A stretch of 64,000 nt of DNA, from NCBI GenBank assembly GCA_000091205.1, contig AP006502.2; one strand, 5' to 3'. The notes beneath the pieces are model-generated. The model was not told where the DNA came from. It did no database searches and worked only from the letters and a program-made list of their open reading frames with translations. Position numbers and translations under genes: made by a program. The stretch's first letter is position 1; every line of letters starts with the position of its first letter. Source of the DNA: Cyanidioschyzon merolae (lineage: Eukaryota). This document shows, in pieces, positions 13,486 through 59,816 of the stretch.

Positions 13486-16400
13486 ACCTCGGAGATGAAC
13501 AGGCCGGGCGCTCTTCACACACGAAGCCAGCTCTGTGCGGTGCAGGTCGCTCGCTTGTGAGTGTATCGCATATCTGCGGCACTTTATTTGTGTGTCTTGA
13601 GATCTGTGTGTCTATATGCTAGAGTATCAGCGGGTCGTCAGGCGCGTGTGTGGCTCCTCGAGCATGCGCTTCCCTGATCGCTCGACTCGGGGCCCTGCGG
13701 GCATTCAACATTCTCGACGCATCTGCGAGACGTGTGTCATGGATCCAACCGGCATTGCACCTAGCCGCTGGCAAGGCGCCTCTGAATCACTGGACATACG
13801 TAAGCATCGTGCTCGAGCTGTTGAGCTCTTTTCGAAGGGAATCTACCGACAACATGGCTTGCAAAGTCATCGGGGCGGGACCACACAACAGGGGCTTTGT
13901 TTGGACCCTCTTTTCAAAAACGCAACCAGAGACGGCACTTGGATGCATTCATTCAGCTTTCCGCACACGTAACAGGTTGCAGCTATGCACAAGCGCCTCG
14001 TACGCGACCGGTCATTAGCGAGATACCTGCGTAGAATCGCGGTCTTCGTAGAGAGCATGCGTTCCGTGCGACGCTCCAAAATGACAGCGTATTCTGTCCA
14101 CGATTCTGCCTGCTCGTCATTTGGCTACAGACCGTCGGCTTTGTGAGCGCAAGCTGAAAGCGTTCACGCAATGCGCATGATGCATCATCAATACAACCAG
14201 CCAAGCAAGACGGGATTCCTGACCATGGACTAGATTTCGCGTCAGGGGAGTCTGTCGAAGAAGCAATGCGTGCGAGGAGGACGTGAGCCAATCACGATCA
14301 TCCTCCATCCGCCCGGTCTTTCTCTGGGGTATTGAGTGAATGCTCAATCATTCGGAATAGAAGCCATGACGAAAAGCACCAAGAGACAAACGTGGGGTCA
14401 CTGCAGCGGCGTGCATACCAGCCCAAGCGCTTGCTGGGGCAACCAGTGCTTGCTGAGCGAACGCTGCGTAACGCTCTTAGCGACAGCAGTTTTAGACTCG
14501 CGATCGGCAGTGGCACACTCGGCAGGTCTTTTGGGCGAAGGATCAGGACGCATCCGGGATGCACTACTGCACACCTGCGGTACCAGAGAGGAACGAGGTT
14601 CCCGGACAGACCGTATTCCCGCTAGTGGAGGGTGCCGTACCCGCGCCTCGGCAATGCCTAACGAGGTTGCTGTTCAGGACTTGAATCTCTAGAATGCTTC
14701 CTACAGATGACGAGACTTTGGACTCAGAGCAGCGCACTTGCAAGAACATGTATCAACACGGTAAACGTGTAATTGTTTGTTTTTCGCACAGGTATTCAAA
14801 ACGTGGATTGTATATTATAGAGCGATGAAAGGTCGCGAGATGACTTTATGCTGGCTGGCTGGCTGGCTTCGGAGCAAAACGCCTTTACTTGTCCAGACCA
14901 GACATTGTGCGGACAGCAGACGTATGAGGTACCCCTCTCGTAGTGCGTTCCTTGAACGACTTGCACCGACCACAGCAAGTTTCAAAAGCTATCTACATGA
15001 GCGTCCCGTCTTTCATGTATTCCAGCCCGGATGATATCCATGACGTACCTCCAAAGAAGCCGCTGGATGAGAGGTTTTCGAACGGTTGATACAAATTGCG
15101 GTGAAGCGACACGAGTGAACGAAGAAGATGGCAGGCTACTACTTGTAGCTGCAGCACCTTGAACAGCGCACGATCGATTTCGCACTGCAACGCGAAAGTT
15201 TATTCCACCAGGGGCATATTGCCGTCTCAATGTATGAGACTTTATTCAGTAGACTTGGTAGATTTGTGTATGGATAATTCAAAACGGGGGCAAACTGCTG
15301 TTCATAGAAAAAAAGCAGCGGGGCTGTCGGTACTATTAGCCCTGGCTACGACTCGGTTATGTAGTTACTTATACATCGCCAAGAATTGTCTAATCGTTCA
15401 ACATCGCATGCTGCGGGGAATCACGTTTTGCGACCTATTCGTTTCACGTTCTTCTTCACTGGCCTTAGACGTTGCCGCTTTCCATCACTATAATGTGGTC
15501 ACGGAGTATGCAGATGAGATCGGCAATGAGCAGTGCTACGTGTGAGCGATGGCTCCCGGTTCCAATCGAGTAGGGGGTATGTCTGTCGGTCTCTGTGCTA
15601 CGCCCGATCCAGCGGTTTGGGCGCTGTTTCGAACGCTCACGGCAGTCGCAGTGCACAATGGAACGTCGGAAAAGCAGAATGTCGGAGATGAGGCACGCGA
15701 TGTGACTGGTGGAAATCGCAGAGCTGGTACGCAATGACGGCAGATTTCCCGGGTGTCGGTACTCGTCGTGAATTCCCGGATCATTGAGCCGTGAGCACAT
15801 TCCATCGATCAGAACGAATTTGCGGTGGGTTGCTCGACACTTGCTGGCCTGGCGCCGGATAGAAACACAATTCAAACCAGTTTCTCATTCCAGCGTCTGT
15901 GCAGAATGGACTGCAAGAAACGGGAATAAACGTGTATCCGTAGTCGGGAAGACTGCGGCGCATAGTTTGTTTACGATCAATAAAACGAACGAAATTCCTG
16001 TTGAGTAGGGTGATGCATACCTCGCCCGCACAAGCGTAAGATACTACAATGGCTACGCTTTTGATACAGGCGTCGAGGGGTATCGTGCCAGGCCCCTGCA
16101 TCCCCTTGTCTGTCGGGGCGGTACTGCGATGGGCAGTAGCGTCGGCACCAGCGACAGAACCTATAGCAAGAGTTCATTCTACGTGAGTTTCCGATGTACA
16201 ATACGTTGTTTTGGCTGCAGTGCACCGGTGAGAGCACGCATGTGCCAATGCGGGGTGTCGGACACGTGTCCTTTATCGATCGGTGCAGCGTCTCGCGCGG
16301 TGCACGCATCGCGCTCAGTGCGCGCACCTAGGAGATCAGGCAGGCGTGAGACACGACGCGCATGCCGCCGTTGAAGGGAAACGTAATCGTGATCAGCAGC

Positions 16401-16511
16401 GTCTAGCTCTCGTGTTAAAGTTGTATTTTCGTTGACTTTATGGGCAAGTATAGTTTTCAGTTCAATTGTGTTTGAAAACTCAAACAAGTGTATTCTAGTG
16501 TTTTGTCGCAG

Positions 16512-16519
16512 TATATAAG
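16512..16519 (+). promoter_or_regulatory. TATA box (tatataag) about 50 bp upstream of the element ATG
   Basis: gcagTATATAAGaggagcg is conserved in copy D (41455-41462) and degenerate in copies A and B. Confidence 0.4.
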
Positions 16520-16570
16520 AGGAGCGTTCAAAGAGGGTTCTTTTTCAAAAAAAACTAAACAAGGAAAGTT

Positions 16571-18911
16571 ATGAAAAAGCAAGTCGACGATCCTGGAGGC
16601 CCAGTGTCGCCGGCTGCCAGAAAGAAAACAAAACACAGTGCCGAGTCCAGAAGAAGAGGAGAAGAAAAAGAAGCAAAAGGAGGAGGCTCTACGTCGAGTG
16701 CTGCAAGAAAGACGAATGTACGACGAGAAGGTGGTGAAAGCTGGTCTTCTTGGATATATCAAGGATCCGTACAGGGAAAATTTGCGAGACGCTATCAGAA
16801 AACGTGTCGACTCGTACTCCAAGAGTACTGTCAAGGCGTCGTCAGGACTGATGCACTCGGCGAGGGAGATGTATCGCGACGTGACGCACATGCAAACAGT
16901 CGAGGTCCCAGACGAGTTGTTCGACACGACCTTTATTCGATACTTGATGCTCGGTACAGGGGAGATGCGAAGGGAAAATGAGCGAGTGCACGCCCTCTGC
17001 CAAAAATACTCCTTCTACAGCTTCGAGGGCACTCGATACAGGGTTGACTCGTGTATTTACGAATACGGAGCGATAAAGTACCCCACGAACCTGAATAAAC
17101 ATTTGACCGTGAACCTCGAACGTTTCATGATACGCGCCGTGTTTGCACTCTACCCGGGCATCTCTCGCAAAGCGATATGGATCATCATCGATAGCATCAA
17201 AAACGATAGTAAGAATGAACAGGTGATCGAATTTGTTCACGAGAAGACATTATGCAGGAAAACGAATGAAGCTTCTGTAATCCGTGCGGCTATACAAGAG
17301 CACCGTGCAGCACTGGGGCTTGCGAGTCCAGCAGAAAAGATATCAGAGTTGAAAAAAGATAAGAAAAGATACCATCGCCTCGTCCTGCGCTATTTCGTGT
17401 TTTTGGACCGAGAGCTCGAACGCAAGGCGGAAATGAAGCTGAGTGAAGAGACAAATGAATATTGGGAGAGACGGAAGCCTGTCCTAATAGGGCAGCGCTT
17501 CAACGTGGCTCCAATGTCCAATATCAAGTCACATTTCCTGACGATCGATTCCGGCGTCGTTCATGGCATCATGAGGGAGATCAGTCCCGAGTTCAATGTT
17601 AACAGGGAGGAGTTCTCCGGCGAAAACCGGGAGACGCACTGGAAGAATATCTTCGATTCCAAACGTCTGAGAGTGAGCAAGCAAAAGTTGTTCACTGAAA
17701 TGATTGAAACCGATGGAGTGGCCTTGTGTATACACTATCGGCGGTTGAAGAGAGATCGGCCAGTCCCTCCCTCGGCCGCGCCCGTGACGAAGGATGAAGA
17801 AAAGGAGGAGGCCGGTCCTGCGACACAGGAGGTAGACGATAACGACCTTGTCGTTGGCGCGGCGGAGCATGAAGATGAGAAGGAGGCGGATCCTGTGATG
17901 CAGGAGGTGGAGGATAACGGCCTTATCGTTGGCGCGGTGAAGCTTGATGAAAACAAAAAGGCAGATCCTGCCACGCAGAGAGTGCAAGATAATGACTTTG
18001 TCGTTGGCGCGGACCCTGGGAATACGAATATCATCACCATTGCAGCACCCAAGCGTGCGGAAGATGGTGCTGATGGTAACTTGCGTCAGAAAAACATGCG
18101 TCTTTTGAGGTTCTCGAGAGCGAGATACTATCGAGAATCGGGAATGATGAATGCAAGGAAGAAAATCGAGACATGGAATGCAGGAATGAAGGAGCACCTG
18201 GACGCTATGAGCGAGGTGACGAGCCGAGGAGCGGACTTTGAAGCTTTTCGGGAATTCATGGAACTTCGTGTTGCGCATTGGGATGCACTGTGGGAGCAGT
18301 ATACCAAGCCTCGGTTGGCTCGTCTGCTTATGAATCTATACGGGTAGAGGCAGCGGGCATTTGCGAACTTTTTCAATCAGTTGAGCGCCCTCAAAGAGGA
18401 TCAAAGTCAGAGGCTGGTAGTAGCATACGGGGCAGGGCGCTGGGCGCCCAAGAAAGGCACTACGCCAGCTCCATCGACGAGAACGTACAAGGAGTGTGCG
18501 CGGCGTTTTGTTAAAATTCCTGCAGATGAGTTTCGAACATCGTATACACATCATGAACTGGGATGTACACTTCAGACGGTGGAGATAGAAAAGTGCCAAC
18601 GGAGTCCTGAGGAAATAGCAAAGTACGGACCGCTGACGGAAGAGCAAATGGAAAGAAGGGCGAAAGTGCGAGGGCTACTCGCATTAGTAAGTACAACCAG
18701 TGATGGAAAGAAACGGATGGAGTCTGTGAATCGAGATTGTAACGCCGCTATCGATATAAGGAAATGTGCGGTGCTAGAGAAAAGACCTCCAGAATGGACA
18801 AGAGAGAACTTTATTGGACAACCTCTCAAAGTCGAACTATATGAGAAGAAGTTGGAAGCAGTAGTGGGTGGCCGGTCGCAAAAGTCTGGGAGGCGTCTAC
18901 ACCTCGGATGA
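16571..18911 (+). pseudogene. Fanzor/TnpB-like RuvC nuclease gene (copy C), nearly intact: one 2-bp poly-A frameshift and one in-frame TAG
   Basis: MKKQVDDPGGPVSPAARKK at 16571 shifts frame in the run aaagaaaacaaaac, where copy D has two more A. From 16638 to 18911 there is a single reading frame apart from the TAG at 18345-18347 (NLYG*RQRAF). RuvC-I is [19 protein letters not shown]. After it comes IPADEFRTSYTHHELGCTLQ...EKC, an E..TS motif plus a Cys/His cluster. RuvC-III is RMESVNRDCNAAIDIRKC. The N-terminus is Lys-rich and looks like a nuclear localisation signal. Confidence 0.6.
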
Positions 18912-18920
18912 AAGCGTTAT

Positions 18921-18985
18921 GTCTAGGGCGGGTTTCTCGCCACTAGTGTGCACGGTCGGCATCGTTCGACTGCGTTTAGGTTCTC
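18921..18985 (+). ncRNA. Candidate omega-RNA-like scaffold, or other conserved 3' end structure, of copy C
   Basis: The 3' tail begins right after the ORF stop and is conserved in all four copies (gtctagggcg-gg...cgcc-ac.a.tgt.cacc/ggt.ggc..cgtt.g). A GC hairpin, GGCG-ggtttct-CGCC, is present here; copy D has a lengthened stem, GGCGCG-ggtca-CGCGCC. Confidence 0.3.
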
Positions 18986-19216
18986 TCTTTTGCAAATGAA
19001 ACACATCCTCCATCAGACTTGCGAAAACGACGCAGCGCTCCTTGTCGTGCGAAGGCGTTTCCGCGCTCGTGCCTGCAACGCTGTACATACCCGTGTGTCT
19101 ACAGAGGCCGGCGCCATGCAACCGCCCTGGCGAGCAGCTGTTTATCCGGAGATGCTTATAGCATCTTGAACTCGGAGTCGAGCTTCGTTTTCCGTTGTGC
19201 GCAGATGGTGGCGTGG

Positions 19217-21364
19217 TCACACGATGCAAGCTGCCGCCGCCGCCGCTGCTGCAGTCGTCGAGGTGCTCGGTCCCGAAGAATGCCCAGTCTGACCCGCATT
19301 CCAGGTCGCAGCGCTCGCTGGATCCACAAAGCGAGTTTCGAACGCTTCTCGCTCTGCCTCGTAGTCGATGAGCACTGTTTGCCCCTCCTTGCCAGGTAAA
19401 TCAAACTGACAATCAAGGAGCACCCGTTCCAAGATACCCCGAAGACCTCGTGCACCAACGCCTTTGTGAACAGCCTCGCGTGCCACTGCCCGCAGCGCTT
19501 GATCCGTAATGTGCATATCGACGCCACTCATGCGAAACATCTCTCGAAACTGACGCACGAGTGCATTGCGCGGCTCGGTGAGCACCTGGACCAACTGCGG
19601 TTCAGTGAGCGCCCGGAGATTGACAACGATCGGGAGACGTCCCACAAACTCGGGTACCAGTCCGTATCGAATGAGGTCCGTTGACTCGACATGATCCAGC
19701 AGTGCATCGTCGACAGCGTCGGAAGCAGCCACATGCGCACCGAAACCAATCGAAGTCGCTGCTAGTCGATGACCAACGATGCGCTCCAGGCCGGAAAACG
19801 CACCGCCACAGATGAAGAGGATGTTGCGCGTGTCCATGGGAATGTACTCGGCACGAGGATTCTTCCGACCGCCTTTCTCCGGTACATTGACGATCGAGCC
19901 TTCCAACATTTTCAGTAGGGCCTGCTGGACGCCCTCGCCGGATACATCGCGAGTGATGCTGGGGCTCTCTGACTTGCGCGAGATCTTGTCGATCTCGTCG
20001 ATATAGACAATGCCCCGTTGGGCCAGATTCAAGTCGAAATCCGCTGCTTGGAGCAAACGGTGCAGAATGGATTCAACGTCCTCGCCAACGTAGCCGGCTT
20101 GGGTCAGGGTGGTTGCGTCCACCATAACAAAAGGGACCCGGCACTTGCGCGCCAGGGATTTCGCCAGCAGCGTCTTTCCGGAGCCGGTCGGCCCCAGCAA
20201 CAGAATATTCGACTTTTCGAATTCGACGCAGTGATCGAGGAGGCTGTTGAGTGTCAACGATGCAGCCGATGAGGCATCACCCATTCGGTACGGAAGCGAA
20301 CCAGGCATACAACCGGCGTTGCCAGTCCCGTAGGAGGCCGCACCGGGCGTCGAACTGCGCAGTTCCAGAATCGGCCCAGGGCGGCTCTTGACCGACTCCC
20401 GTGACGTCGCATGTGCGTCATCTGCACCAGTCGACTCATGGATGTATGGGGCACGTGTTTTCGTGCTCGCAGTCAAGTCGAGGTCACTGCTTCGAAACGC
20501 TGCTTCCGTTAGGTCGTCAAGCACAATCGGGCGGCGAGACATGTTCGACTCCGCCGGGGATGCCTCTGCATCACTGTCGAGCGGCATGCGGCGAGGACGA
20601 ACGTTTCCCGATGACCACGAGGATGACGGGTTTGCGTTACTGCTGTCGATGGAGTGGATTGCTGGAGGAACGCGTGTACCAGCACCCGATGTGCGTCGTG
20701 ACCCATGCATATCCGACATCATCATCAGCAGAATGCGCCCTGCGGAGGACTGGAGCGACGGTTTCCCTGAAATCGTTTGGGATGTGTTGCCGCTGGTGCT
20801 CGTGCTACTGCTCGTGCTACTGTTGCTACCACTGGTACTGTTATTGCTCAAACTCTCTTCGAAACCGGGCCAACCAAAGCGGGTGCTGGTGGTATTCTCG
20901 TTTTCGCTGGTGCCACCCATGCCCACGGTTGAAGCAGCGGAGGCAGCCCGCACGCGCTCCATCAGTTCACTCGCGAGCACCTTCTTATAGTGATTATGGG
21001 TGGCGACTGCCAAGACGCGTTTCGCCTTTTCCTGTCCTATGCAGTACTCGTTCAGGTGGTCGAAAAGCGCACGCGGCGTCGGGAGCGCCGCAACCCGCTG
21101 TCTCAGGAGCCGCGTATAGGTCGCCATTAGGTGACCGTCCCGCACTGCAGAACCGTAACGAAACTCGTCGGCGTCCTCCCAGCTTCCTGAACGAGTACCG
21201 CTTGTGCTCAAGCACTGGACACCGCCCTGGCGCCGACACCGGTGAATGGTACCGACTGCGGCCAAACGAGGCTCCACTGACTTTTGTCCCAGAGAGCACC
21301 AGGCTTTCCAGTCTACCAGATAACTCCGTTGGGAAAGCACCGCATCGACCCGAACCAACGACAT
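19217..21364 (-). CDS. clpX: ATP-dependent Clp protease ATP-binding subunit ClpX (organellar type)
   Basis: Walker [46 protein letters not shown]. Walker B and sensor region [17 protein letters not shown]-terminal part ...[15 protein letters not shown].... There is a long Ser/Thr/Asn-rich insertion and an N-terminal extension. The track start is GTG; the first ATG is at 21364. Confidence 0.85.
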
Positions 21365-21540
21365 TTCCTCTGACAAGTGCAAGCACACACAGACACAGCC
21401 ACAAAAGCTCGCGCTGACCTGGCGCTGCTGAAAAGCCGTTTACTCAGGAAACGTTGTGCAGGCGCGCCGCGGGATCGTTGCCGCTCAACGGGCTCGAGGT
21501 GCACTGCCGGCGGACGCGTGGCGGCGTTCTCCGCACGAGA

Positions 21541-21575
21541 TGATGATGATAACGATGATAATGATGATGATGATC
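21541..21575. repeat. Imperfect (GAT)n microsatellite
   Basis: Reads tgatgatgataacgatgataatgatgatgatgat. Confidence 0.7.
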
Positions 21576-22897
21576 ACGGGGTACGGCTGCGGCATCCTCC
21601 GCATCTGGGGCAGCGTAGGGCGCGCGGTGAGCGGCCTGCGCGCGATCCGCCCATCGATGATGCTGGTGCCCCAGCGCTGTCTGTGTGCTGTTTCCGACCT
21701 ATGGATCGCAATGGAGAAACTGAAACTCATGAGACATGAATGTATATTACAGTCATGCGTGCGCAAGCTCGGCGCTGACCAGCGACGCTGCCGGTGCTGC
21801 GCAGCGTCCCCTGGAGCGCGCGAAAGACGCTCTGTCTTCGAGTTACATCGGCATGAACAGTGTAGGTGGTATTGTGGATGCAGTGCGGCAGGTGCTCGGT
21901 GCACAGTGGAACGCATGAAACGACCAGTAGATTCGCGGGGCAGTATTGGTCATGGAACGTGAAGGTGGAGTGCAGCATGCAGGGCGCTTTCCCGGATGCA
22001 GGTATTCATTACGCAAGCCGGGACCCGTGGTCCACGGAAACCTTTTGTTTAACGAGAGAAATTGACGGTGCAAACCAGCACGCGATCCTCGTCTGCTTTG
22101 CCTCGCAAAATGGGAGTAACGACATGCGGGTATATCAACAACACGTCGCTATCTTGCTGCTACGTTCCGGATATTCATTCGTTTGCTTAACTTACCACCA
22201 TTCGATCATCGAAATTCGCTTGAACAACAACACGTCGCTATCTTGCTGCCACGTGTTTCCCGCTTCGCATATTACAACGCACCGTATGGCAGGCGACGAC
22301 GCTGTGCCGCTTATGCAGTCAGTACCGCAAGGATGCCCAGACCTGCGGCAGGCACACAACGCGCATGACGCGCTAAACTTGCAACTAGAGCATCTTCCAG
22401 CGGCTAATGAATGCCCCAAAGAACAGGTCCAGGGAACTCGTGGCGGCCGCGGTTGCATGTGCACATGCTGTAGTAGCGCGGAGGATTGCGGTGCGCTCGG
22501 TGCTGGTTGCCTGCGCACCCTGCCACCAGTGCAGCCACCACAACTTGTCCATGGCATCTGTGCGAGAACACGTAGCACGCGGCCGCCTTGCCTATGTGAA
22601 ACCGTTCATTGTTTACGGCCAAAGTTTCGAAGAAAGATGGTGAACCGAGACTCGCTGAAGCACATCGTTTCTTTCTCCAGACCAGTACGGAGACGATGTC
22701 GCGACGTTCATGAGCTGAACAACTCCAGCAGTACCCAGGATGCTCCGTGGCACCCTTGGAAACGCGGGCCATTGCCGCTGACGTTGCGAAGACGCCAGGG
22801 TCCGCATCCGCACGCCAGCGAGCAGCGAACTCTAGACGTGCTATTTTCAAGCAGGCGCTGGCTACAAGAGACCGCATCCCGGTACGGGCGCTTCGCT

Positions 22898-26254: not shown

Positions 26255-29200
26255 GGTATCCGTACGAACACTTCCAGCGCGTGTACGACGTTTCTAGTTT
26301 CGCGCGTGCCGCGCTAGCGACGCGACAGCGCCGGATGCGCCTACCGATCGAACTGCATGTGTGAGGCGCGCACGGATCATCACACGCCGCGAGCGCTCGC
26401 GAAGCGCAGCATGCGCGCGCGCAACGCAGTGTCCATCTTAGATCTGAAACAAAAATGGACATTGACCCAGACGGAGGCACAGGCGCGGCATCCGTGGTAG
26501 TGTGCTTTCGTGCAGCGCCTGGCGAGCGCATCTTCGATGTTGTTGTTGCTGTAGTTGTTTGGACATAACTATGGCGCACAGAACAGAGATCCTCGATTGC
26601 GCTCATCGATAGGGGAAAGTGTCCATCATGATTCACGCTAGCTGCAGGTTCCACGATCGCTGGTCGACTGCGGAGATCCTGGCTATTGTCCAGGTCCTAT
26701 CGTGCATCGAATGCCTGCCTTGAGCGTTCGTGATAGCGCGTATAGCGCCGGTGCGGAAGTACAGCACGGAGGCGTCGATGCGTGTGCGTGGCGCCGGCAG
26801 CCGCGCGCACCCACACGAGCAGCGTCCGGTTGGATGCATCGCTCTGCGGACTCTGGCATGCCATGGGCGCTTGCGCATGAATCGAGCGCTCTGCACTGGG
26901 GTTTGAGGCGTTCAAGGCAGGCGCTCGACGCTCGCTGGAACATGCGATATGAGCGGTATCTCTGAGGGGACCGATGGGTAGCGGCTCGTGGAGCCTGCAG
27001 GTATGGTGCGGAATGATGGACGCTATCCTGCATGTCGATATGGGCCATGCAATCGCGCGGATGCGTGGTGAATGTCAAGCTTCTGTCAAATACAAAAAGT
27101 TGGGCAAGATGCATGCTCCCGAGGTGTGCGCAAAAGCGGCAATAACGCGCTCCCACGACGCCGGGATCCAGGTCTTGTGTCGATGTAATTGAGTGCATCA
27201 ACGAGATGAGCGGCCCGCTTGCGCAGTTCACAGCTGTGTTCCCAATTGGAATCGATCGCGCGGGATGCATGAAGCGCCGCCTCGAGTCGTGAAGAAAGAG
27301 CATGTACCTCAGGGATTTCGTACCTGGGGCGACTCGCCTGATGCGAACGCCGGCCTCGAATCCTCGGCACATGCGGTTTTGGTACTGCATCCATGTGAAA
27401 GTAGTGGCTGCTGTTCGCTTGCGTCTGATATCGCATATTGCAGGGATACGCGCGCCGTAATGATGCATGTACAGTTCAGATGGAGGGAACTTTTAAAAGC
27501 TTGCTTTGGCACTGTCTCACTGAGTCGACACCCGCAAAGTCTTGGCGAGGCGGTTCCATGTCCCTGCGGCAGCAGCACCAGCAGCACTTGCCGAATGGAC
27601 GCTCGACAATCTTATGATCATCAGAGGGATTGATCGTGTCCTCCACAGTGAAAGTTGAATCGGGCATTTCTAAAGAAACTGTGGTCTTTATCCCTGGTAA
27701 TTGGCAATATTTACGAAGCCGACAGCATCCAATGAGATGCACAACCCCTACCCCGCACGAAAAAACACTGCTTTACGTCCAGATGTTCACAGTGGCGTCC
27801 GGGAACGTGCATGCAGGGTAAGCACTTGGAGGATCCGATGAGGAATGATGGCTCCACAGTTACAAGCTGATAACAATTGCGGAACCGGGGATCCCTCGTT
27901 CGTCCCAACGGCCTTATACGATGTAATAATGCTGGGTAGGCACGAGCGTCTCGAACTGCGCTCGACACTGGAGCTCGACCCAGCCGAGTGCGATGTCAAT
28001 GTTGCTCGTTGGAGATCATCGCCAGATCACAAGTGGACTACCCGTTTGGACATGGTGGTGAACGAACACGCACAACGCTGGCTCGTAAGCGTAAACGAAC
28101 GTGAACTGAGGCATCCGCGACGAGTGCTTCCTCCAATCCTTAGGGCCAAATTGATTCTTTGTAACAACAGGGACACTTTTTCTGAACTGGTCGCTCGCGA
28201 AATTTATCCTCAGTGGGTATACCCAGTTCCGGATACCTAAAGGAATAGAGGATACATCCGATATGCGTTGAATCGTGCGACTCCGGCCGCATCAAGATAC
28301 GGCAGGCTAACGCGCTGACGAAGACATCTCGAGCGCAACGCTACCCTGTGCAGAGAGGCAACTCTGCGAAGATGATTGCTTTCTTTGGTTCGCAAGGATT
28401 TTCAACTGATGCGGGTGTAGATCCTTGGAGTTCAAATTCACCAGTCGAGTAGCACGCGTCAAGCGCCTCAAATCCATCAAGTTCGACGTGAATCGGGCTC
28501 CAGGGCGAGCTCGACGGCTTTAGTGTACAAAGCGTCCTCTAGAAACCGGCGACGCGTGCAGTGATTCCACTCTGTAATTGAATGACATGCATGTACTGTT
28601 GTTCGAACCTAGGGTACAAGTACCGCTCAGGATGAGATTCGGCGGAATCACCACCCGCTCTGAGTGCTCGGGAGTTTTCTGTATCCCCTGCACTGAGGTA
28701 CATCGAGGATCCTGGGCCGGATCAAGCACACTCTCTCTGGACCAAGTGTCGGAACGCGTCCTTGATTCACATCGAGCATACCTTCTCGCAGTAATCGAGG
28801 AAGCGACAAGCCCCGAGGGCGTTTCGCTTGGAAGAGCATTCATTACGCCGCCTCGGCTCAGTAGCGCGACCTCTGAGCTACGCATTCTGAAAATTGCAAC
28901 GCCATGCCGCGAATCCACGTAGCGGTTCGATGCCCTGACTAACAATGTCATCGTTCGGTGTCAGCGACCTGATGGTGCCGGTGAAAACGGAACGCCGTCG
29001 TCTGCACACCATGGTTGTCGTTGTCGTTGTTGTTGGCATCCATTGAAGCAGTGCAGTTTTCTGCGGCTTTTTCCGAGTATGCATCAGATTCGCTCAAACC
29101 GGGATATAAGAGGGCACCGCCAAAGCGCTTCAGCCCGAGGCACGTACGCATGTCTCCAGAAATTGCAAAAAGCTTCTCTGGGATGGAGAGCATTACCCGG

Positions 29201-38748: not shown

Positions 38749-39865
38749 TGGTAGAGCTCGAACACTAGGGTGAACAGGAACCACGCTGGCAGTTCCTTTG
38801 CTAAGGCGTCCACTAGCGCCGCAACGTTTTCCAGTAACCGGTGAACTTGCCGCTGCCACGACCGCCGCATACAGCGCTGCACTGGCCGTTGGTCGGATGG
38901 TGGCGGAGGCGATGGCGGATATGCTGCGGCGCTTTACATGTCGACAGATTCCCAGGATTTCAAAGACCCGGAAGGCAACACGTTCAAAGTTCGTTGCTAT
39001 GAAGCATGAGCTTTCGAAAGCGGGTTACGAAAGGTAACTCGCGTCGGGCATACCGTTCCCTTGCGGGCGAAGCGCACGTCGGCAGCGGGCGACAGCCCCG
39101 CACGCTTCACAGCGCCGAGCCCCTGCCTGAAAGAGCGTCCGCTGCGCTCGGGCGTCGCTACCCAGCAGTAAGTTCGCAGAGTAGGCCTGCACGTGCTGCA
39201 TAGTGACCGGAGCCCGTTTCCAGCAATACTTTGCGCGACTCGCAGACCATGGTTCACCGACTTGAGGTAGGCTTGCATCAGCGGTCTTCCCGTTCGCAGG
39301 CGAAACTGCACTGAGCTGCTCGTTCACCTTGAAAGGTCGCGATTGGCAAGCACGGTACAATGCAGAACATTGAGGGGGAACGGTACCGCATGTGCAAAGT
39401 GCTCACATCGATCAGCGTGCGGAACGATATGTACATCCATTTTCACGCGATACCTATCAACCATCATCATGGTTTGGCTTCTGGTGCCTCCAGACCAAAT
39501 CCCGTGCTCAGAGGATCGCGCTTCTTTCGACGCATGCTGGTGCACTCGCCCGAGGACAGCGGGAACAGCAAACGCATGTCGCCGCAGTGCATATACGCTG
39601 GATGGACGACCACTCGCTTTCGAGCAGTCGACGCTCGCGAGTATTCAGCAAACGTCTTCATCATGACGATGTCGCAGTTCCGAGGAATACGCTGTGACAC
39701 AGCGGCCGGTGTCGCGTTCCTGGCATCCCGCTCCCTTGTTGGCGCTCGTGCGTCCGCATGTGCACCGAAGGACGCACCAGTGCGCGTCTACGCATTCGGG
39801 GTACCAGCTGCGTTGCGACGCCACCGAAAACTCGCGAGTACGCGAAGCTTTGCTGGACGCACACC

Positions 39866-40492
39866 CTAGTATTGCTCAAAACGAGCACCAAGTAGAGCAG
39901 CACCTGCCCATGGAGTTGGTACGACAACAATGTCGTGCGTGGTAACCGAGCATTCAGGTGCTGAAGCGCGCAAACCCTTCACAACCGAAAATACCACCGT
40001 CATCGCGAGCGTCTCGCAGACAGTGCAGGAGGCGACGCGTACAACCAGGTCGCCTTGTAGGAGGCCTCCCTGGGCCGCTGGTGACCCAGCCTCTACCTGC
40101 ACCACCTTTGCGAACGGTCTCAGGTTCGACTGACCCAGACTCGTCTCAGTCCAGTCTGAGCTTTGTGCTGGCTGGTTGTCTCCGGGGCGGTGTTCCCGGC
40201 TCGAGGCAGTCCGCACCGCTGGTGCGCTCTCCACGACTCGTGACGCAGACGCTGTAGACGGTGCGGTTTGCGTGTGTGCTGGCCCGCTTGGAAGCATCTC
40301 CGGAAGCAGCCTTCCAGTTTCTTTCATTATCAGATAATAGTCGGTTTGCAGGCGCACGAGACGTTGCCAATACTGGCGGATCTGGTGTACATCGCAGTCC
40401 GAACGGGGGAAGCCGTCCTCGTGAACGAGTGGATCTCGCACCCCGGCAGGCGTGGCTTCTAAGCAGGATACCAAGTGTTCAATGTCACGCAC
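39866..40492 (-). CDS. PSMD9/Nas2-like PDZ-domain protein (proteasome regulatory particle assembly chaperone)
   Basis: PDZ core ...FAKVVQVEAGSPAAQGGLLQGDLVVRVAS.... C-terminal ...IVVVPTPWAGAALLGARFEQY matches the P-x-P-W-x-G-x-G-L-L-G end of PSMD9/Nas2. The track start is GTG and the first ATG is at 40327, so the helical N-terminal portion HQIRQYWQRLVRLQTDYYLIMKE would need a non-ATG start or an intron. Confidence 0.45.
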   Translation of the reverse strand: MRDIEHLVSCLEATPAGVRDPLVHEDGFPRSDCDVHQIRQYWQRLVRLQTDYYLIMKETGRLLPEMLPSGPAHTQTAPSTASASRVVESAPAVRTASSREHRPGDNQPAQSSDWTETSLGQSNLRPFAKVVQVEAGSPAAQGGLLQGDLVVRVASCTVCETLAMTVVFSVVKGLRASAPECSVTTHDIVVVPTPWAGAALLGARFEQY

Positions 40493-41514
40493 GAATTCTT
40501 CTTACTGTAGGGCTAGCGCTAGTAGGCGCTGTACGCTGTCGGAGGTCATTTGTTCGACGTCTCAGACAGGCGAACGACGGCGCGTAGCTCCAGGCGTTGC
40601 CCCGGGAACCTTTACGGACGAGGTCGTTTACGAGGCTCAGCGTCCGAAGACCATAAAACGAAAGTATCATCGGAACTTGGCTCGAAAGGAATCTGGGCAG
40701 AGTGCTGACGCTGTATACGATTTTTGAATGACGACAACAACAGCGACAACCGGCCTCATGGCATGGTCAGAAATCGGGACTGTCGAGCAGTGGGACGCAC
40801 GAAAACCGCACAATTCAAACCAGTTTCTCATTCCAGCGTCTGTGCAGAATGGACTGCAAGAAACGGGAATAAACGTGCATCCGTAGTCGGGAAGACTGCG
40901 GCGCATAGTTTGTTTACGATCAATAAAACGAACGAAATTCCTGTTGAGTAGGGTGATGCATACCTCGCCCGCACAAGCGTAAGATACTACAATGGCTACG
41001 CTTTTGATACAGGCGTCGAGGGGTATCGTGCCAGGCCCCTGCATCCCCTTGTCTGTCAGGGCGGTACTGCGATGGGCAGTAGCGTCGGCACCAGCGACAG
41101 AACCTATAGCAAGAGTTCATTCTACGTGAGTTTCCGATGTACAATACGTTGTTTTGGCTGCAGTGCACCGGTGAGAGCACGCATGTGCCAATGCGGGGTG
41201 TCGGACACGTGTCCTTCATCGATCGGTGCAGCGTCTCGCGCGGTGCACGCATCGCGCTCAGTGCGCGCACCTAGGAGATCAGGCAGGCGTGAGACACGAC
41301 GCGCATGCCGCCGTTGAAGGGAAACGTAATCGTAATCCGTAGCGTCTAGCTCTCGTGTAAAAGTTGTATTTTCATTGACTTCATGGGCAAGTGTAGTTTT
41401 CAGTTCAATTGTGTTTGAAAACTCAAACAAGTGTATTCTAGTGTTTTGTCGCAGTATATAAGAGGAGCGTTCAAAGAGGGTTCTTTTTCAAAAAAAAACT
41501 AAACAAGGAAAGTT

Positions 41515-43801
41515 ATGAAAAAGCAAGTCGACGATCCAGGAGGCCCAGTGTCGCCGGCTGCCAGAAAGAAAAAACAAAACACAGTGCCGAGTCCAGAAGA
41601 AGAGGAGAAGAAAAAGAAGCAAAAGGAGGAGGCTCTACGTCGAGTGCTGCAAGAAAGACAACTGTACGACGAGATGGTTGTGAAAGCTGGTCTTCTTGGA
41701 TATATCAAGGATCCCTACAGGGAAAAGTTCCGAGGCGCTATCAGAAAACGTGTCGATTCGTACTCCAAGAGTACTGTCAAGGCGTCGTCAGGACTGATGC
41801 ACTCGGCGAGGGAGATGTATCGCGACGTGACGTACATGGAAACAGTCGAGGTCCCAGACGAGTTGTTCGACACGACCTTTATTCGATACTTGATGCTCGG
41901 TACCGGGGAGATGCGAAGGGAAAATGAGCGAGTGCACGCCCTCTGCCAAAAATACTCCTTCTACAGCTTCGAGGGTACTCGAAACAAGGGTGACTCGTGC
42001 ATTTACGAATACGGAGCGATAAAGTACCCCACGAACCTGAATAAACATTTGACCGTGAACCTCGAACGTTTCATGATACGCGCCGTGTTTGCACTCTACC
42101 CGGGCATCTCTCGCAAAGCGATATGGATCATCATCGATAGCATCAAAAACGATAGTAAGAATGAACAGGAGATCGAACTTGTTCACGAGAAGACATCATG
42201 CAGGAAAACGAATGAAGCTTCTGTAATCCGTGCGGCTATACAAGAGCACCGTGCAGCACTGGGGCTGGCGAGTCCAGCAGAAAAGATATCAGAGTTGAAA
42301 AAAGATAAGAAAAGATACGATCGCCCTGTCCTGCGCTATTCCATATTCCTGAACGGAGAACTGGAACGCAGGGCCGATATGGAGCACGGTGTGGAAGCAA
42401 ATGCAGTGCCGGAGAAACGGGAAGCTGCGCTTCTGGCGAGGCATTTCAACGTCGTTCGGTTACGCGAGATCAAGTCCCATTTGTGACGATCGACTCCACA
42501 GTCTTTCAGGACATCATGAAGGAGATCTGTCCGGATTTCGATGTCAGCAGGGAGGTGTTCTCCGGTGAAAACCGGGAGACGTTTGAAATCGAAGATATTC
42601 TGCTTCGATTTCAAACGCCTCAAAGTGAGCAAGCAAAAGCTATCCGCGGGGATGATCGAAACCGATGGCGTAGCCATGTGTGTTGACTATCGGCGGTTGA
42701 AAAGCGATCGTCCTGGCCCGTCTTCGATATTGCCCGTGACGAAGCATGAAGATGAGAAGGAGGCGGGTCCTGCGACGCAGGAGGTGGAGGATAACGGCTT
42801 TATCGTTGGCGCGGTGAAGCATGATGAAAACAAGAAGGCGGATCCTGCCACGCAGAAAGCGCAGGATAACGACTTTGTCGTTGGCGCGGACCCTGGGAAC
42901 ACGAATATCATAGCCATCGCAGTACCGAAGCGTGCGGAATATGGTCACGACGGTAACTTGCGCCAGAAGGACATGCGTCTGTCGAGATTCTCGACAGCGA
43001 GATACCATTGAGAATCCAGTATAATGAATGTGAGGAAGAAAATCGAGACATGGAATCCAGGAATGAAAGAGCATCTGGAAGCGATGAGCGAGGTGACGAG
43101 TCGCGGAGCGGACTGTAAAGCTTTTCGGAATTTCATGGAAGTTCGTGTTGCGCATTGGGATGCACTGTGGGAGGAGTATACAAAGCCCTGGTGGGATCGT
43201 CTACGTATTAATCTATACTGTCGGAAGCAAGGTGCATTCAAGAAAATTTTCGATGAGTTCAGCGCCTTGAAGGAGGATGAAAGTCAGAGGCTCGCATTAG
43301 CGTACGGAGCAGGGCGCTGGGCTCCGAAAAAAGGGTGTACACCAGCTCCAACTACAAGAACATACAAGGAGTGCGCAAGGCGTTTCGCTACGATACCTGC
43401 AGATGAGTTCCGAACATCGTATACACACCATGGACTGGGGTGCACATTTCAAAAGGTCGAGATGGGAAAGTGTTAACGGAGCCCTGAAGATATCAAAAAA
43501 GTACGGACCGCTGACAGAAGAGCAAATGGAAAGAAAAGCGAATGTTCGAGGGCTATTCGCATTAGTAAGTACAACCAATGGCAAGAAACTTATGCGATTC
43601 CTGTATCGCGACTTTGAGGCCGCTATCAATATAAGGGCATGTGCGGTGCTGGAGCATAGACCTCCAGAGTTGACACGAGAGAATTTTATGGGGCAACCTG
43701 TCAAAGTGGGACTATATGAGAAAACTATGAAACCAGTAGCAGGTGGCCGGTCGAGAGAAACTGGGAGGCGTCTGCAGCTCAGTTGGCGACTTCGTGTCTA
43801 G
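41515..43801 (+). pseudogene. Fanzor/TnpB-like nuclease pseudogene (copy D): intact N-terminus, two in-frame stops and one frameshift
   Basis: MKKQVDDPGGPVSPAARKKKQNTVPSPEEEEKKKKQ... runs continuously to a TGA at 42484-42486. The second segment (42541-43011) holds RuvC-I, ...[25 protein letters not shown], and ends at the stop at 43009-43011. A frameshift near 43440 follows, then ...IPADEFRTSYTHHGLGC.... The final piece (43403-43801) has ...RFLYRDFEAAINIRACAV, which is RuvC-III. Confidence 0.6.
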
Positions 43802-43875
43802 GGCGCGGGTCACGCGCCACTACTGTACACCGGTGGCGTCGTTCGACTCTCGAACGGCGTTTGGTACGTGAGGAA
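43796..43875 (+). ncRNA. Candidate omega-RNA-like scaffold, or other conserved 3' structure, of copy D
   Basis: gtctagGGCGCGggtcaCGCGCCactactgtacaccggtggcgtcgttcgactc... A 6-bp GC stem replaces the 4-bp stem of copy C, which is consistent with a conserved hairpin. Confidence 0.3.
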
Positions 43876-52322: not shown

Positions 52323-52465
52323 GCAGCGTGCGCCTCAGGGTCACACAAAGTTCGCATCTTGACTTCATTGTCTAGTTTCTTGGGAGCATACTGCAACACG
52401 CTGCTCTGTGCACGCCGGAGCGCATGGCAGGGACCCTGCTGTCGAGAACGCTTCTCATCCAAAAG

Positions 52466-52640
52466 TCCGTAAATATACGAGGGAAATCGATCCAGCTGCA
52501 GTATCAGTGCATCACCACTATTCCCGAGGTATCCCGAGCATCGCAACGTATATCCCAGAGTCCGTAAATATACGAGGGAAATCGATCCAGCTGCAGTATC
52601 AGTGCATCACCACTATTCCCGAGGTATCCCGAGCATCGCA
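52466..52640. repeat. Tandem duplication of a 95-bp unit (1.85 copies) just downstream of BASS
   Basis: Unit tccgtaaatatacgagggaaatcgatccagctgcagtatcagtgcatcaccactattcccgaggtatcccgagcatcgca... at 52466-52560. It is repeated exactly at 52561-52640. Confidence 0.9.
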
Positions 52641-55410: not shown

Positions 55411-57798
55411 GCAGGTAAATTCGCACATTTTGACAATTCCAAGGGACTGGAGCATCGCCTTCGTATATCGATGCACATGTATCCCAGATTTCAAAGTCTT
55501 GCTTCATGGCGGGCATTTTTCGTTGCGGTAGTTCACGCTTCCGTCGAAAGCGCCGTATCCGAGGCGTCTACGTCGAACAACGCAAAGTGTCGCGGCACAC
55601 ACTGCACTGCAAAGCTGCATTATCACGCGAATCCGAGTTTTTTTTTCTGTTGCCAGAACGTTTCCATTCACCAGGGATTCCCGCTTGCGCGATGGATATT
55701 AGCATTCGGCATCGCAGCAGACGCTCCCGCGCTTGACTCCAGGCTCGATCACATATACCTTATCTCGCAGATCGAAGTCGTTTTTCACGCTCTACCGTGC
55801 GCCAAGTGCCTGACGTGAGCGTCTGCGCCAACAACGGTAGCGCCGGTGCGGTCACAGCATGGCGACAACACCGCATGGTCATTCCAAGGAGCGCTTCGGC
55901 TCGAGGCGTGCCTCACCTGACCCAGCGTCTTGGCTCATTAGCGATTTGTGCTCGCAACCAAGTGCCATATCGCTCGCGTAGCGGCAGTTTCGCCCCACCC
56001 GTATCAGTTTACAATGGAACATGAAAGTGCTTGCTCCGTTCCTGGCAGGCAACTGTTTTCGTACTCTGTTTAGAAATGCGGCTTCAGGATGCCAAGTGCA
56101 GCAACAAGGGCTTTCGGATTCATGGAGAGTTTCGGGATTACCGCTCGTTTCTTCCGAATGGATCCTTCGATGCTCTCCCGGTAGCATTCGTGACATCACC
56201 GGAATCGAGATGATCCGCGAGGCAATCGAACAGGGATTTGCAAAACCTAACCATATTACGATCCAATTCATATGTACGCGTTTGCACGCGTCTACTTTCC
56301 TAACATGTAGCATACTCCAATCAATGGTGCTTGGTGTTTTCGATCTATCTATTGCGAGGCAACTCGTGGAGGTAGCCATTCACGTGGCTGGTTTGACGAG
56401 GAAACCTACTCGACGCCGTTTCCCCGGCGACGTTTTCTCCCAGCTCATGCCCAAAGTTCGCTGAACTTGGAAGTTCAGATACTCGATTCCTTTCGAAAGA
56501 CAAATGCTTTTCTTTTTGAAGTCATCGACGGAGCGTCATTCAACAGTAGCGTGATACCTGCCAAGGGGTGCGCTCCCAGAGGCTTACGTCTCTCCTGCTT
56601 GTATGGAAAAAGGTCTTGGACTCGGACTCGAGTCATCGCAGCGAACTGTCCCAGTCGAGCATAAGTCAGCGCTTTGCGGGAAGCGAGCGTAGACAGATCG
56701 GCATTTCTGGACCAGTTCTCCGGACTGGATTTTCCCTCTGGCACTCGTTTCACCCTGGGCAACTTCGCGTTTCACTCATTTTCTATCGAACCGGCCGCAT
56801 GCGTCTGCGTGTGTAGCGAACAGTGTACGCTCGCGGCGGATCAACCAGAAGGAGCTCGGCATCGTGAGGTACGGCAACTGACCCGGAAATCGAGCTTGGC
56901 ATCGAGGATAACCCTTTGTATCTGTCAAGGGCATGTACTGAGCAATCAAGCGAGCGTTTACGCGGCAAAGGGCAATAAACAAAAGACGAGGTGTCGTGGA
57001 CGTATTCGACCGCCTGACCACATCCAAGTGTCACCGCTGCAAATGGCGCCCCTGCGTTGCATATACTGAAGAGACAAATGGCGATCGACGCGTGCATCGC
57101 CAATATCGTCTGTTCAGGAAATGCGTAGAAAAATGCCGAAAGCCGGTAAGTGAGACCCTCACCACTGCCATCAACACCCTTCGACTGCATGCAACGGATT
57201 CGGAAGCAAACAAGAGACCAGCGTGTTCCAAGCTCCGAGACCTGTAATAGGAAAAGGAAGCAGTCACTGAAAAAGCTCCCATTGGCTGGAATTCATAGAA
57301 GTGCACTGAGAAGCCAACGTTGGCACGTGCACCCGAGTTACAGAGAACCCGATCGACTTTATCCTGAATTGGATGTAGCGGAAACGCGTCCCAAACTTCA
57401 GCAACAAGCGTCCTGACCTCCGTTCAGCAGACGCTTCATGACACACAGTCGTGCGCAAGATACGCACGTCGGCATACGCATGGGCCTTATGAGCATCATC
57501 CCACACGGAACGACAGTTGCTAGACATGTGTCCTCGCGATGATCCACAATGATGCTCAGGTTGGCGTATATAGTGCGTCTGTTTGCTTCATGAACTGGTG
57601 CGCTTCGGAAATCGGTGTCGTTTGCCATCGCATGAATGCAGTTCTCCGCTTAATGAATCGTGACTCGACAAGCCGAATTTCATGTCGAGCGGTTATTCTC
57701 AAAGCGCCCTTGGCTGGTACCAGCGACCGGTGTCCGTAAAATGCTCGAGTCCGCATGAGCGTTTCCCTGCAGGTCTGAATACACCTGTGGTGCGGGTA

Positions 57799-58620: not shown

Positions 58621-59816
58621 GTCAGCCCCAGTCACTACGAAGAGACAACCAGTCACGGCGCTTTCGAACCTGCGCCTCTACCCTGTAAGTCTACCACGCG
58701 TTGCAGTGCAACAGCGTCAAACGTCAATGTCTTATGAAGCAACGTCGCCGAACGCTGCCGGTCAGGCGGTACGCGTCACTGCGAAAAGTGAATCCTCATG
58801 TGAGGCGCACCTGCTCCGTGCATCTACGGGGTCGTTTCTATGAAGCAGTTTTTCGGACGAGAATGTTCATTGGGGATGCCGTCGACTAGGTCATTAGGGT
58901 CCTGCCACCAAAGGCAGTGTATATTGTCCACTCTGGTGTCAGGAAGAAAGCTGCACCTTTTTACAGACCGCCGCTTCTAGGTGGACCTACCATTCTTGAG
59001 CGGCGTTTGCGGATATAGAACGCAAAGCCGGCACCGGACCGCATGCTGACTGAACCAAGAAGCTCGTTTATGGACACCAAAGACACACGTTCTACCTCCC
59101 GGGTGGTAGGTCCCGCGAACCGAATGAGCACACAGGTCTAGCGTGTCGTGCACCTGCTCACTTGTTGGTATCGAGCCAAGGCCTGCATCACGAACTGGCG
59201 ACGCAGTTCATGCATGGTGGCGAAGGTAGCGTTCAGTGCCCGGATATTCGTGCTACTTGCCGGATTCGCTCCACGATTCGCACCACACACTGGCAAGCCT
59301 GTACATGTCGAGCGTCGGAGCAGAAACGAACCACGAGACCTGACCTCGCCTCGAGTCGACGTACTCCATGGCATGGTAACGCAGTGCCAACTCCGTGTTG
59401 TGTCCGTACCGATCATACAGGTGCTGCGGCGGGTGCTCGCAGCAGGCACTCGACGCTCCGCGAAAACCTACGAACGGACTAGTACCGCCCGGGAAAAGGA
59501 CGTCCAGCGGCTAATCGAACGCGGATCTCGGGTCTGGAAAGAAGGACGCTTTCCCGAATGCCGGTATACACAGAGTCATCAATCTAGGATCCTTCGTCCG
59601 TGTAAACGTGATGTCCTTGGAAACAGGTTACCAGGTCTGACTGCCTGCAAGCACTCCAGAGTACTAGCGGCACTGAGCGGCAACTGGCGTGGAGGCTTCG
59701 GATGCGCTTCCCGGGGTGCATCGCTCGATTCACCGATCGCTGGTAAATGGATCACCCTGACTTGTGCGTAACTGGAACCTTCTAAATATCATTATTGGGA
59801 GGCAAGCGTTCCCCTT

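Follow-up and report, generated by a model that had tools for sequence, protein, structure and literature searches.

Chromosome 20 of Cyanidioschyzon merolae 10D (CMT genes) carries four copies of the transposable element CMe-1A within 64 kb, and we describe here a tandem repeat inside the nuclease gene of these copies. The window, meaning the whole stretch of DNA analysed, is 64,000 nucleotides of contig AP006502.2 (GenBank assembly GCA_000091205.1); exact protein matches to XP_005539105.1 and XP_005539120.1, in the CYME_CMT049C neighbourhood, assign it to this 1.62-Mb chromosome. CMe-1A was described in C. merolae as a 3169-bp element without terminal inverted repeats, present in ~150 copies each ~80% identical to the consensus, and encoding a 734-amino acid (aa) Fanzor1 protein (Bao & Jurka 2013, PMC3627910). 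Within the window the repeat is longest in copy C, where three units lead up to a catalytic motif.

Element copies in the window

The related elements in the window were defined using blastn and a four-way MAFFT alignment, which gave four copies, A to D. The unit counts in the following list refer to the repeat; identities are to the published consensus.

178..2593, minus strand: copy A, one unit; consensus nt 735-3169, 84.7% identity (blastn); 5'-truncated, many frameshifts.
2603..5704, plus strand: copy B, one unit; consensus nt 1-3089, 81.7% identity (blastn); degraded.
16310..18953, plus strand: copy C, three units; consensus nt 648-3137, 85-88% identity (blastn).
15866-18971, plus strand: full extent of copy C, from the blastn and MAFFT four-copy comparison.
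16638..18911, plus strand: Fanzor1 reading frame of copy C, from the open reading frame (ORF) list and translation; one in-frame TAG at 18345-18347.
41253..43838, plus strand: copy D, two units; consensus nt 648-3145, 83-85% identity (blastn); frameshifts, stops.
40809-43848, plus strand: full extent of copy D, from the same four-copy comparison.

Taken together the copies are 82-88% identical to the published CMe-1A DNA consensus (blastn), and no terminal inverted repeats of the element were found. Frameshifts and stops are numerous in copies A, B and D. In copy C the ATG upstream of the reading frame, at 16571, is out of frame through a 2-nt deletion relative to copy D. The aspartate (Asp) of the RuvC-I motif is kept in copies A, C and D and is glycine (Gly) in copy B (DPG to GPG), which has also lost an alternative catalytic glutamate (Glu; DEF to NQY). 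The TAG stop of copy C recurs in L004, an environmental locus that matches copy C together with its right flank at 98.2% identity, so copy C is an old pseudogene. On the lesions read from their sequences, all four window copies are pseudogenes.

Copies C and D are 97% identical up to ~17331 in copy C (~42280 in copy D) and 74-88% identical from there on; 3' of this breakpoint copy C resembles A and copy D resembles B. Judged by these shifts in identity, CMe-1A copies are recombinant mosaics. The repeat array was considered as the C/D recombination breakpoint and rejected, since identity drops at ~17331, ~450 bp upstream of the array. A 5' segment of ~445 bp (15866-16309 in C; 40809-41252 in D) is common to C and D at 96-99% identity, has no counterpart in the published consensus or in copies A and B, and may mark a subfamily whose 5' region differs. 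Copies A and B lie head-to-head ~10 bp apart, with A truncated at consensus nt 735 and abutting the 5' end of B.

Identity of the encoded protein

Direct searches of Pfam, NCBIfam, PHROGs and PDB sequences, using the window protein or a shallow family alignment, gave nothing significant. A large protein database yielded 41 Joint Genome Institute (JGI) clusters matching the window protein at 36-83% identity. Some of these homologs (P0001-P0041) bear a precomputed assignment to PF26935 (DUF8286), an uncharacterised Pfam family, so that part of this Fanzor1 clade is apparently classified by Pfam under a domain of unknown function. When a profile of the C-terminal domain was searched exhaustively with HMMER, 1859 representatives scored at E<=1e-3, and lengths of 580-700 aa were common among them.

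The link to Fanzor1 came from a deeper profile, prepared from a 33-member alignment of diverse relatives out of the exhaustive search. This family profile matches PpFz1 of Parasitella (9cf0) with E=1.2e-19, SpuFz1 of Spizellomyces (8gkh) with E=7e-14 and GtFz1 of Guillardia (9cer) with E=3.5e-3. Invariant in the 33 sequences are the Asp-Pro of DPG, the Gly of AYG, the Glu of DEF and the R-D-N-A-N of RD.NAA.N. The catalytic residues in copy C fall as follows.

18012..18014, plus strand: RuvC-I Asp, D433 of the 731-aa conceptual protein; profile alignment to SpuFz1 D383.
18528..18530, plus strand: alternative RuvC-II Glu, E605 in ADEFRTS; aligned to SpuFz1 LDE541YKTS.
18735..18737, plus strand: RuvC-III Asp, D674 in NRDCNAAIDI, in the invariant RD.NAA.N columns; aligned to SpuFz1 NRD606.

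An earlier reading of the window, made from its sequence alone and called here the sequence-only reading, had taken the motif after the array to be RuvC-I, and both the profile matches and the fold matches below agree with it. In the profile alignment the DPG of copy C is paired with DPGRRD of PpFz1 and DPN of SpuFz1. In SpuFz1, as seen by cryo-electron microscopy, D383/N385, E541 and D606 coordinate two Mg2+. A hallmark of Fanzors is replacement of the canonical RuvC-II Glu by Gly or Pro together with an alternative conserved Glu downstream (PMC10530073); here the canonical position is the invariant Gly of VVAYGAG, and the invariant Glu of DEFRTS lies 33 residues downstream.

An AlphaFold model based on a 78-sequence alignment has a predicted local distance difference test (pLDDT) score of 84.5 and a predicted template modelling score of 0.82; a run on 42 close homologs gave a pLDDT of 39.7 and was discarded. 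When the model was compared with the PDB using Foldseek, the top seven matches were all Fanzor1 (E 1.4e-16 to 4.1e-13), with target-normalised template modelling scores of 0.70-0.73 for the SpuFz entries. The best Cas12 match (E=4e-3) and TnpB 8h1j (E=1.5e-2) came far behind Fanzor1.

One Fanzor1 feature is not kept by the clade. The canonical C4 zinc ribbon between [TS][TS] and RD is not conserved among the 78 members; His or Cys is common in no more than three columns of the region (H 0.44, H 0.29, C 0.67), and copy C reads HH..C...C in place of CxxC...CxxC. PF07282 is reached by just 4 of the 33 profile members, with a best E of 5.6e-5. CMe-1 was nonetheless listed as Fanzor1 by Bao & Jurka, from whose work the zinc-ribbon motif is taken (PMC3627910). 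By profile match and modelled fold, the element protein is a Fanzor1.

The tandem array

The units of the repeat in the four copies are located as follows.

17790..18014, plus strand: array of copy C, three in-frame 75-nt units, from Tandem Repeats Finder (TRF), codon-register translation and identity at offset 75.
17790-17864, plus strand: unit C1, by codon register.
17865-17939, plus strand: unit C2, by codon register.
17940-18014, plus strand: unit C3, by codon register; its last codon, GAC, is the RuvC-I Asp.
42742..42891, plus strand: array of copy D, two in-frame 75-nt units, D1 at 42742-42816 and D2 at 42817-42891, from TRF and unit comparison.
4741..4815, plus strand: single unit of copy B, from the four-copy alignment; catalytic Asp changed to Gly.
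1147..1220, minus strand: single unit of copy A, 74 nt through a 1-nt deletion that shifts the frame, from the four-copy alignment and translation.

TRF reports a period of 75 in both arrays: 3.0 copies with 76% matches and a score of 252 at 17788-18012 in copy C, and 2.0 copies with 82% matches and a score of 207 at 42741-42889 in copy D. Self-identity at offset 75 is 0.76 in the C array and 0.82 in the D array, while any other offset gives at most 0.49 (<=0.49) and the maximum over 2000 shuffles is 0.51; the blastn self-match at offset 75 has E=3.5e-25. The sequence-only reading, which had seen three tandem units of about 25 aa in copy C and offered their periodicity for checking by self-alignment, is thus upheld, with the array limits refined to 17790-18014. 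It had also assigned one unit each to copies A and B, as the four-copy alignment does, and two to copy D; the latter count stands, but the coordinates given with it, 42760-42905, were shifted to the right by ~15-18 nt.

At 75 nt the unit spans 25 codons, and it lies within the sole long ORF of the element, so the repeat is intragenic and in frame as had been claimed. Units follow one another head-to-tail without spacer and in the same frame (TRF; codon-register translation). With an ORF-internal unit that falls between 10 and 100 bp and is divisible by three, the repeat has the properties of a coding minisatellite. The Asp codon (GAC, 18012-18014) ends the final unit only; internal units have GCG or GTG at that place, in keeping with the earlier observation that a catalytic-type Asp is confined to the last unit of C. 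DPGNTNI comes directly after the last unit of the copy C array.

Between the two arrays, D1 matches C2 at 93% identity and D2 matches C3 at 91%. Units within the C and D arrays are only 69-84% identical to one another. C1 is nearest to D1 (84%) and C2 (80%). A conserved terminal unit type comprises C3, D2 and the single units of A and B. Because the divergence between C1 and C2 exceeds that between C2 and D1, units must have been both gained and lost.

Unit number across loci

Unit number was determined as the distance between flanking anchors over 87 loci, comprising the four window copies and 83 loci fetched from metagenomes; some of the 87 are the same site in different samples. The distribution is as follows.

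One unit: 13 loci of 87.
Two units: 25 loci.
Three units: 20 loci.
Four units: 14 loci.
Five units: 11 loci.
Six units: 2 loci.
Seven units: 2 loci.

Multi-unit copies make up 74 of the 87. In 40 protein arrays, the length from HYRRLK to DPGNTNI follows 44+25(n-1) aa with n from 1 to 6, and one variant is shorter by 4 aa. The variable copy number proposed from the window (1/1/3/2 for A/B/C/D) is therefore found again in the 40 proteins (1-6) and the 87 loci (1-7).

Unit number can differ between copies that are otherwise almost the same. Proteins P0005 and P0006 agree at 518 of the 520 residues aligned, yet have 3 and 5 units. Their loci, L002 and L003, from two samples, are 99.1-99.3% identical over 9.7 kb and have like flanks (an MFS transporter and a DEAD_2 helicase); they contain 5.0 and 3.0 units, and their sole large difference is a 147-bp indel in the array. 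On this alignment the difference is a variable number tandem repeat (VNTR) polymorphism at one and the same locus. Environmental relatives of the window loci keep their counts: the C-like L004 and L062 have 3 units, and L027 and L029, which bear the left flank of copy D, have 2, as copy D does.

In some arrays neighbouring units are near-identical (P0029, P0034 and P0035, with 0.84-0.92 aa identity; L002 has three such units), which points to recent local duplication. Unit types at the first and the last position are conserved, which points to old expansions. Arrays of near-identical units are unstable and degenerate arrays such as those of C and D static, a pattern that fits the usual behaviour of minisatellites. 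The best preserved multi-unit copies are L005, with 5 units and one stop in 835 codons, and L001/L006, with 4 units, one stop and an N-terminal frameshift.

At L004:745-9193 the left flank of copy D (98.5%) is joined to a C-like 3-unit element, followed by the right flank of copy C (98.2%); the corresponding window segments are 38902-40809 and 15866-22405, and L062 is also concerned. Either C and D recombined ectopically in an environmental strain, or the assembler joined them wrongly across their 97%-identical 5' halves.

Structure and selection at the repeat

Residues 352-416, which run from a Pro-rich leader through units 1-2 into the opening eight residues of unit 3, have pLDDT values of 29-43 and no secondary structure, and form the sole long low-confidence stretch of the AlphaFold model. 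Structure prediction had been put forward as a check on whether the extra units form a disordered linker, and it places them in just this structure-free segment before the RuvC-I strand. In the model, strand 427-434 (NDFVVGAD) belongs to the last unit and brings D433 into the RuvC sheet.

The ratio of nonsynonymous to synonymous substitution rates (dN/dS) was compared between parts of the ORF, with internal units taken from copies C and D, L001 and L003.

RuvC half: 0.12.
Whole ORF, compared across copies: 0.28-0.40.
Internal units against their best partners at other loci (125 codons): about 1.3.
Adjacent units of the same array: about 1.0.

These rates accord with internal units being unconstrained. 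The linker between the WED and RuvC domains measures 23-133 aa (median 30) in 72 distant clade members, where it is compositionally biased and non-periodic. Since the linkers of the distant clade are variable and lack periodicity, the repeat is specific to the Cyanidioschyzon subfamily, placed at an already variable spot.

Other features of the window

At the 3' end of copy C (18858-18950) there is a conserved long-range stem, GCAGTAGTGG ... CCACTACTGT, around the stop codon, with nested helices; it is also present in copies A and D and in loci L001 and L003. It is a candidate omega-RNA scaffold, of which only 2 of 46 predicted pairs covary and which has no Rfam match. No Rfam family was found anywhere in the window.

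The first ~290 nt of the CMe-1A consensus have counterparts, at 67-77% identity, in five short fragments of the window. By this sequence match they are probably copies of the 635-bp non-autonomous TE-N2_CMe of Bao & Jurka.

21887-22048, minus strand: CMe-1A 5'-end fragment.
26613-26771: CMe-1A 5'-end fragment.
26912-27088, minus strand: CMe-1A 5'-end fragment.
55651-55940: CMe-1A 5'-end fragment.
59349-59615, minus strand: CMe-1A 5'-end fragment.

Neighbours in the window are long uninterrupted eukaryotic ORFs on both strands, encoding a cullin, a Nug1/GNL3L GTPase, a ClpX-like protein, a Rad4/PNGase-type transglutaminase and a zeta-carotene desaturase. The ClpX-like AAA+ ORF (19217-21388, minus strand) has a Ser/Thr/Ala-rich low-complexity N-terminal half of ~370 aa before its ATPase domain. 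A separate tandem repeat with a 95-bp unit occurs at 52457-52640 (1.9 copies, 97% identity, TRF score 354), just downstream of the ORF for an SBF-family transporter (end 52322).

Interpretation of the array

We consider it likely that the array is a neutral, in-frame coding minisatellite tolerated in the WED-to-RuvC linker of the known CMe-1A Fanzor1. The duplicated piece would have been 75 bp (25 codons), copied head to tail and encoding the end of the linker together with the first beta-strand of RuvC; the catalytic Asp would have been left out, with the 3' breakpoint of the duplication falling within its codon. Whole units may since have been gained and lost via replication slippage, unequal exchange or gene conversion among the ~150 copies, with the frame preserved because the unit length is a multiple of three. 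The model and the substitution rates suggest that the last unit alone provides the strand inserted into the RuvC fold and holding the Asp in place, and that internal units lengthen an acidic flexible linker, already variable in length in the wider Fanzor1 clade. Because they would merely extend such a linker, internal units would be tolerated and drift neutrally. The arrays of the window are old and degenerate, in pseudogenised copies, and those elsewhere with near-identical units are still unstable. That expansions are tolerated in active protein we infer from two sequence observations: the ORF outside the array has been under purifying selection while multi-unit lineages diverged, and near-intact copies have 3-5 units.

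Several points weigh against this explanation. None of the 83 fetched metagenome loci yielded a fully intact copy, and because no sampled multi-unit copy is fully intact, we can only infer tolerance in the active nuclease. The low pLDDT in the array could partly reflect the small number of alignment rows that have those columns. Only ~125 pooled codons stand behind the dN/dS estimate for internal units. Differences in array length are almost always multiples of 3, even in dead copies; this fits slippage of whole units but is compatible also with selection for frame.

The unit number might instead be adaptive, tuning the spacing between WED and RuvC, or the acidic units might form a DNA-mimicking or autoinhibitory tail; expansion would on this view be an advantage in active lineages. 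Such a selected module would account for the positional conservation of first- and last-unit types across many copies and for the multi-unit majority (74 of 87 loci), and the 3-5 units of near-intact copies and the purifying selection on the whole ORF during divergence of multi-unit lineages can be cited for it too. We nevertheless judge it unlikely: internal units evolve at a dN/dS of 1.0-1.3 against 0.12 in the RuvC half and have no predicted structure, a single unit is present in the published consensus and in several lineages, and the wider clade has no repeat at this linker. A more specific proposal, that Asp-less internal units act as decoy strands competing for insertion into the RuvC sheet and so produce an inactive conformer, draws on the strand-like motif DN(D/G)(F/L)(V/I)V(G/D)A, which every internal unit keeps. 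It seems very improbable, since recent common descent accounts for the retention of the motif, the model puts only the strand of the last unit in the sheet, with high confidence and the internal motifs unstructured, and internal units show no sign of selection. We likewise give very little credence to the bolder combined claim that selection maintains the array as a tunable part of an active RNA-guided nuclease, whether through the length of an acidic WED-RuvC tether or through Asp-less decoys that gate cleavage. If it were true, expansion and contraction would be a fast-evolving switch that sets how active the transposon is in a host whose genome is tiny and tightly policed.

Two further explanations set the protein aside. 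The repeat could act at the DNA or RNA level, as part of a guide RNA, a regulatory element or a recombination hotspot, with its coding look incidental; the copies are indeed recombinant mosaics, and a short inverted repeat pairs the array end with sequence just upstream. Yet the array is mid-ORF in an ORF under purifying selection, the main C/D breakpoint lies outside it, Fanzor guide RNAs are located at the element's 3' end, and Rfam gave no match, all of which makes this role more doubtful still than decoy strands. Least credible of all is an assembly artefact, in which unit numbers would be repeats collapsed or expanded by the assembler. Tandem repeats are prone to mis-assembly and the metagenome contig L004 may be a C/D chimera, but the 16-31% divergence among units in the window arrays makes mistaken collapse or expansion impossible, environmental contigs give the same counts as the window (3 in L004 and L062, 2 in L027 and L029), and the series of counts from 1 to 7 recurs in many independent samples. 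The evidence points to neutral, tolerated expansion of the linker rather than to any action on catalysis.

To the published CMe-1A these results add a VNTR at the WED/RuvC junction of its Fanzor1 gene, made up of 1-7 in-frame units of 75 bp, with a unit count that is still polymorphic between natural populations. Since 3-5-unit lineages diverged under purifying selection on the rest of the protein, they suggest that the junction tolerates insertions of 25-150 aa. This is a useful hint for domain-insertion engineering of Fanzor editors, tolerance in the active enzyme being presumed, and the array could act as a strain marker for Cyanidioschyzon populations. The repeat leaves the understanding of how Fanzors work unchanged.

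Comparison with known systems

The window copies are like published CMe-1A in host (C. merolae), in their ~80% identity range and in having no terminal inverted repeats, and the CMe-1 protein consensus belongs to the same family as the window protein: ...HYRRLK...DPGNTNI...VVAYGAG...DEFRTSYTHHELGC...NRDFNAAINI. They differ in the repeat, as the published CMe-1A consensus has one 25-aa unit (nt 2124-2198) and the copies here have 1-7, varying even at one locus. The word 'tandem' is not present in the main text of the CMe-1A paper (PMC3627910), and a search of the literature on Fanzor genes for tandem repeats brought up nothing relevant. Element and nuclease had been reported before; the repeat appears undescribed.

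SpuFz1 (8GKH), PpFz1 (9CF0) and GtFz1 (9CER) have the same fold (Foldseek E 1e-16 to 4e-13), the same rearranged RuvC triad of Asp, alternative Glu and Asp, and the domain order REC-WED-RuvC-TNB. The window protein is only 12-16% identical in sequence to these solved Fanzor1s, and its clade has no conserved C4 zinc ribbon. Its WED-to-RuvC linker is expanded by the repeat, whereas PpFz1 has instead a folded insertion of ~100 aa within RuvC.

Coding repeats are known in other mobile elements. The length polymorphism region of mouse LINE-1 ORF1 likewise consists of in-frame tandem units (66 and 42 bp) within a transposon ORF, and its unit number likewise differs between element families by gain, loss and recombination (PMC3600994). 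There it is a structured coiled coil whose length is altered; the array here is in a predicted disordered linker of a DNA-transposon nuclease, with internal units that are apparently neutral. The coding repeats of Borgs are reported to be likewise multiples of three, fast-evolving and disorder-adding, in ORFs of mobile or extrachromosomal elements (PMC9879509). The authors of that work describe the Borg repeats as perfect, of recent origin and strongly selected, whereas most arrays described here are degenerate, and the internal units compared, those of copies C and D, L001 and L003, have a dN/dS of ~1.

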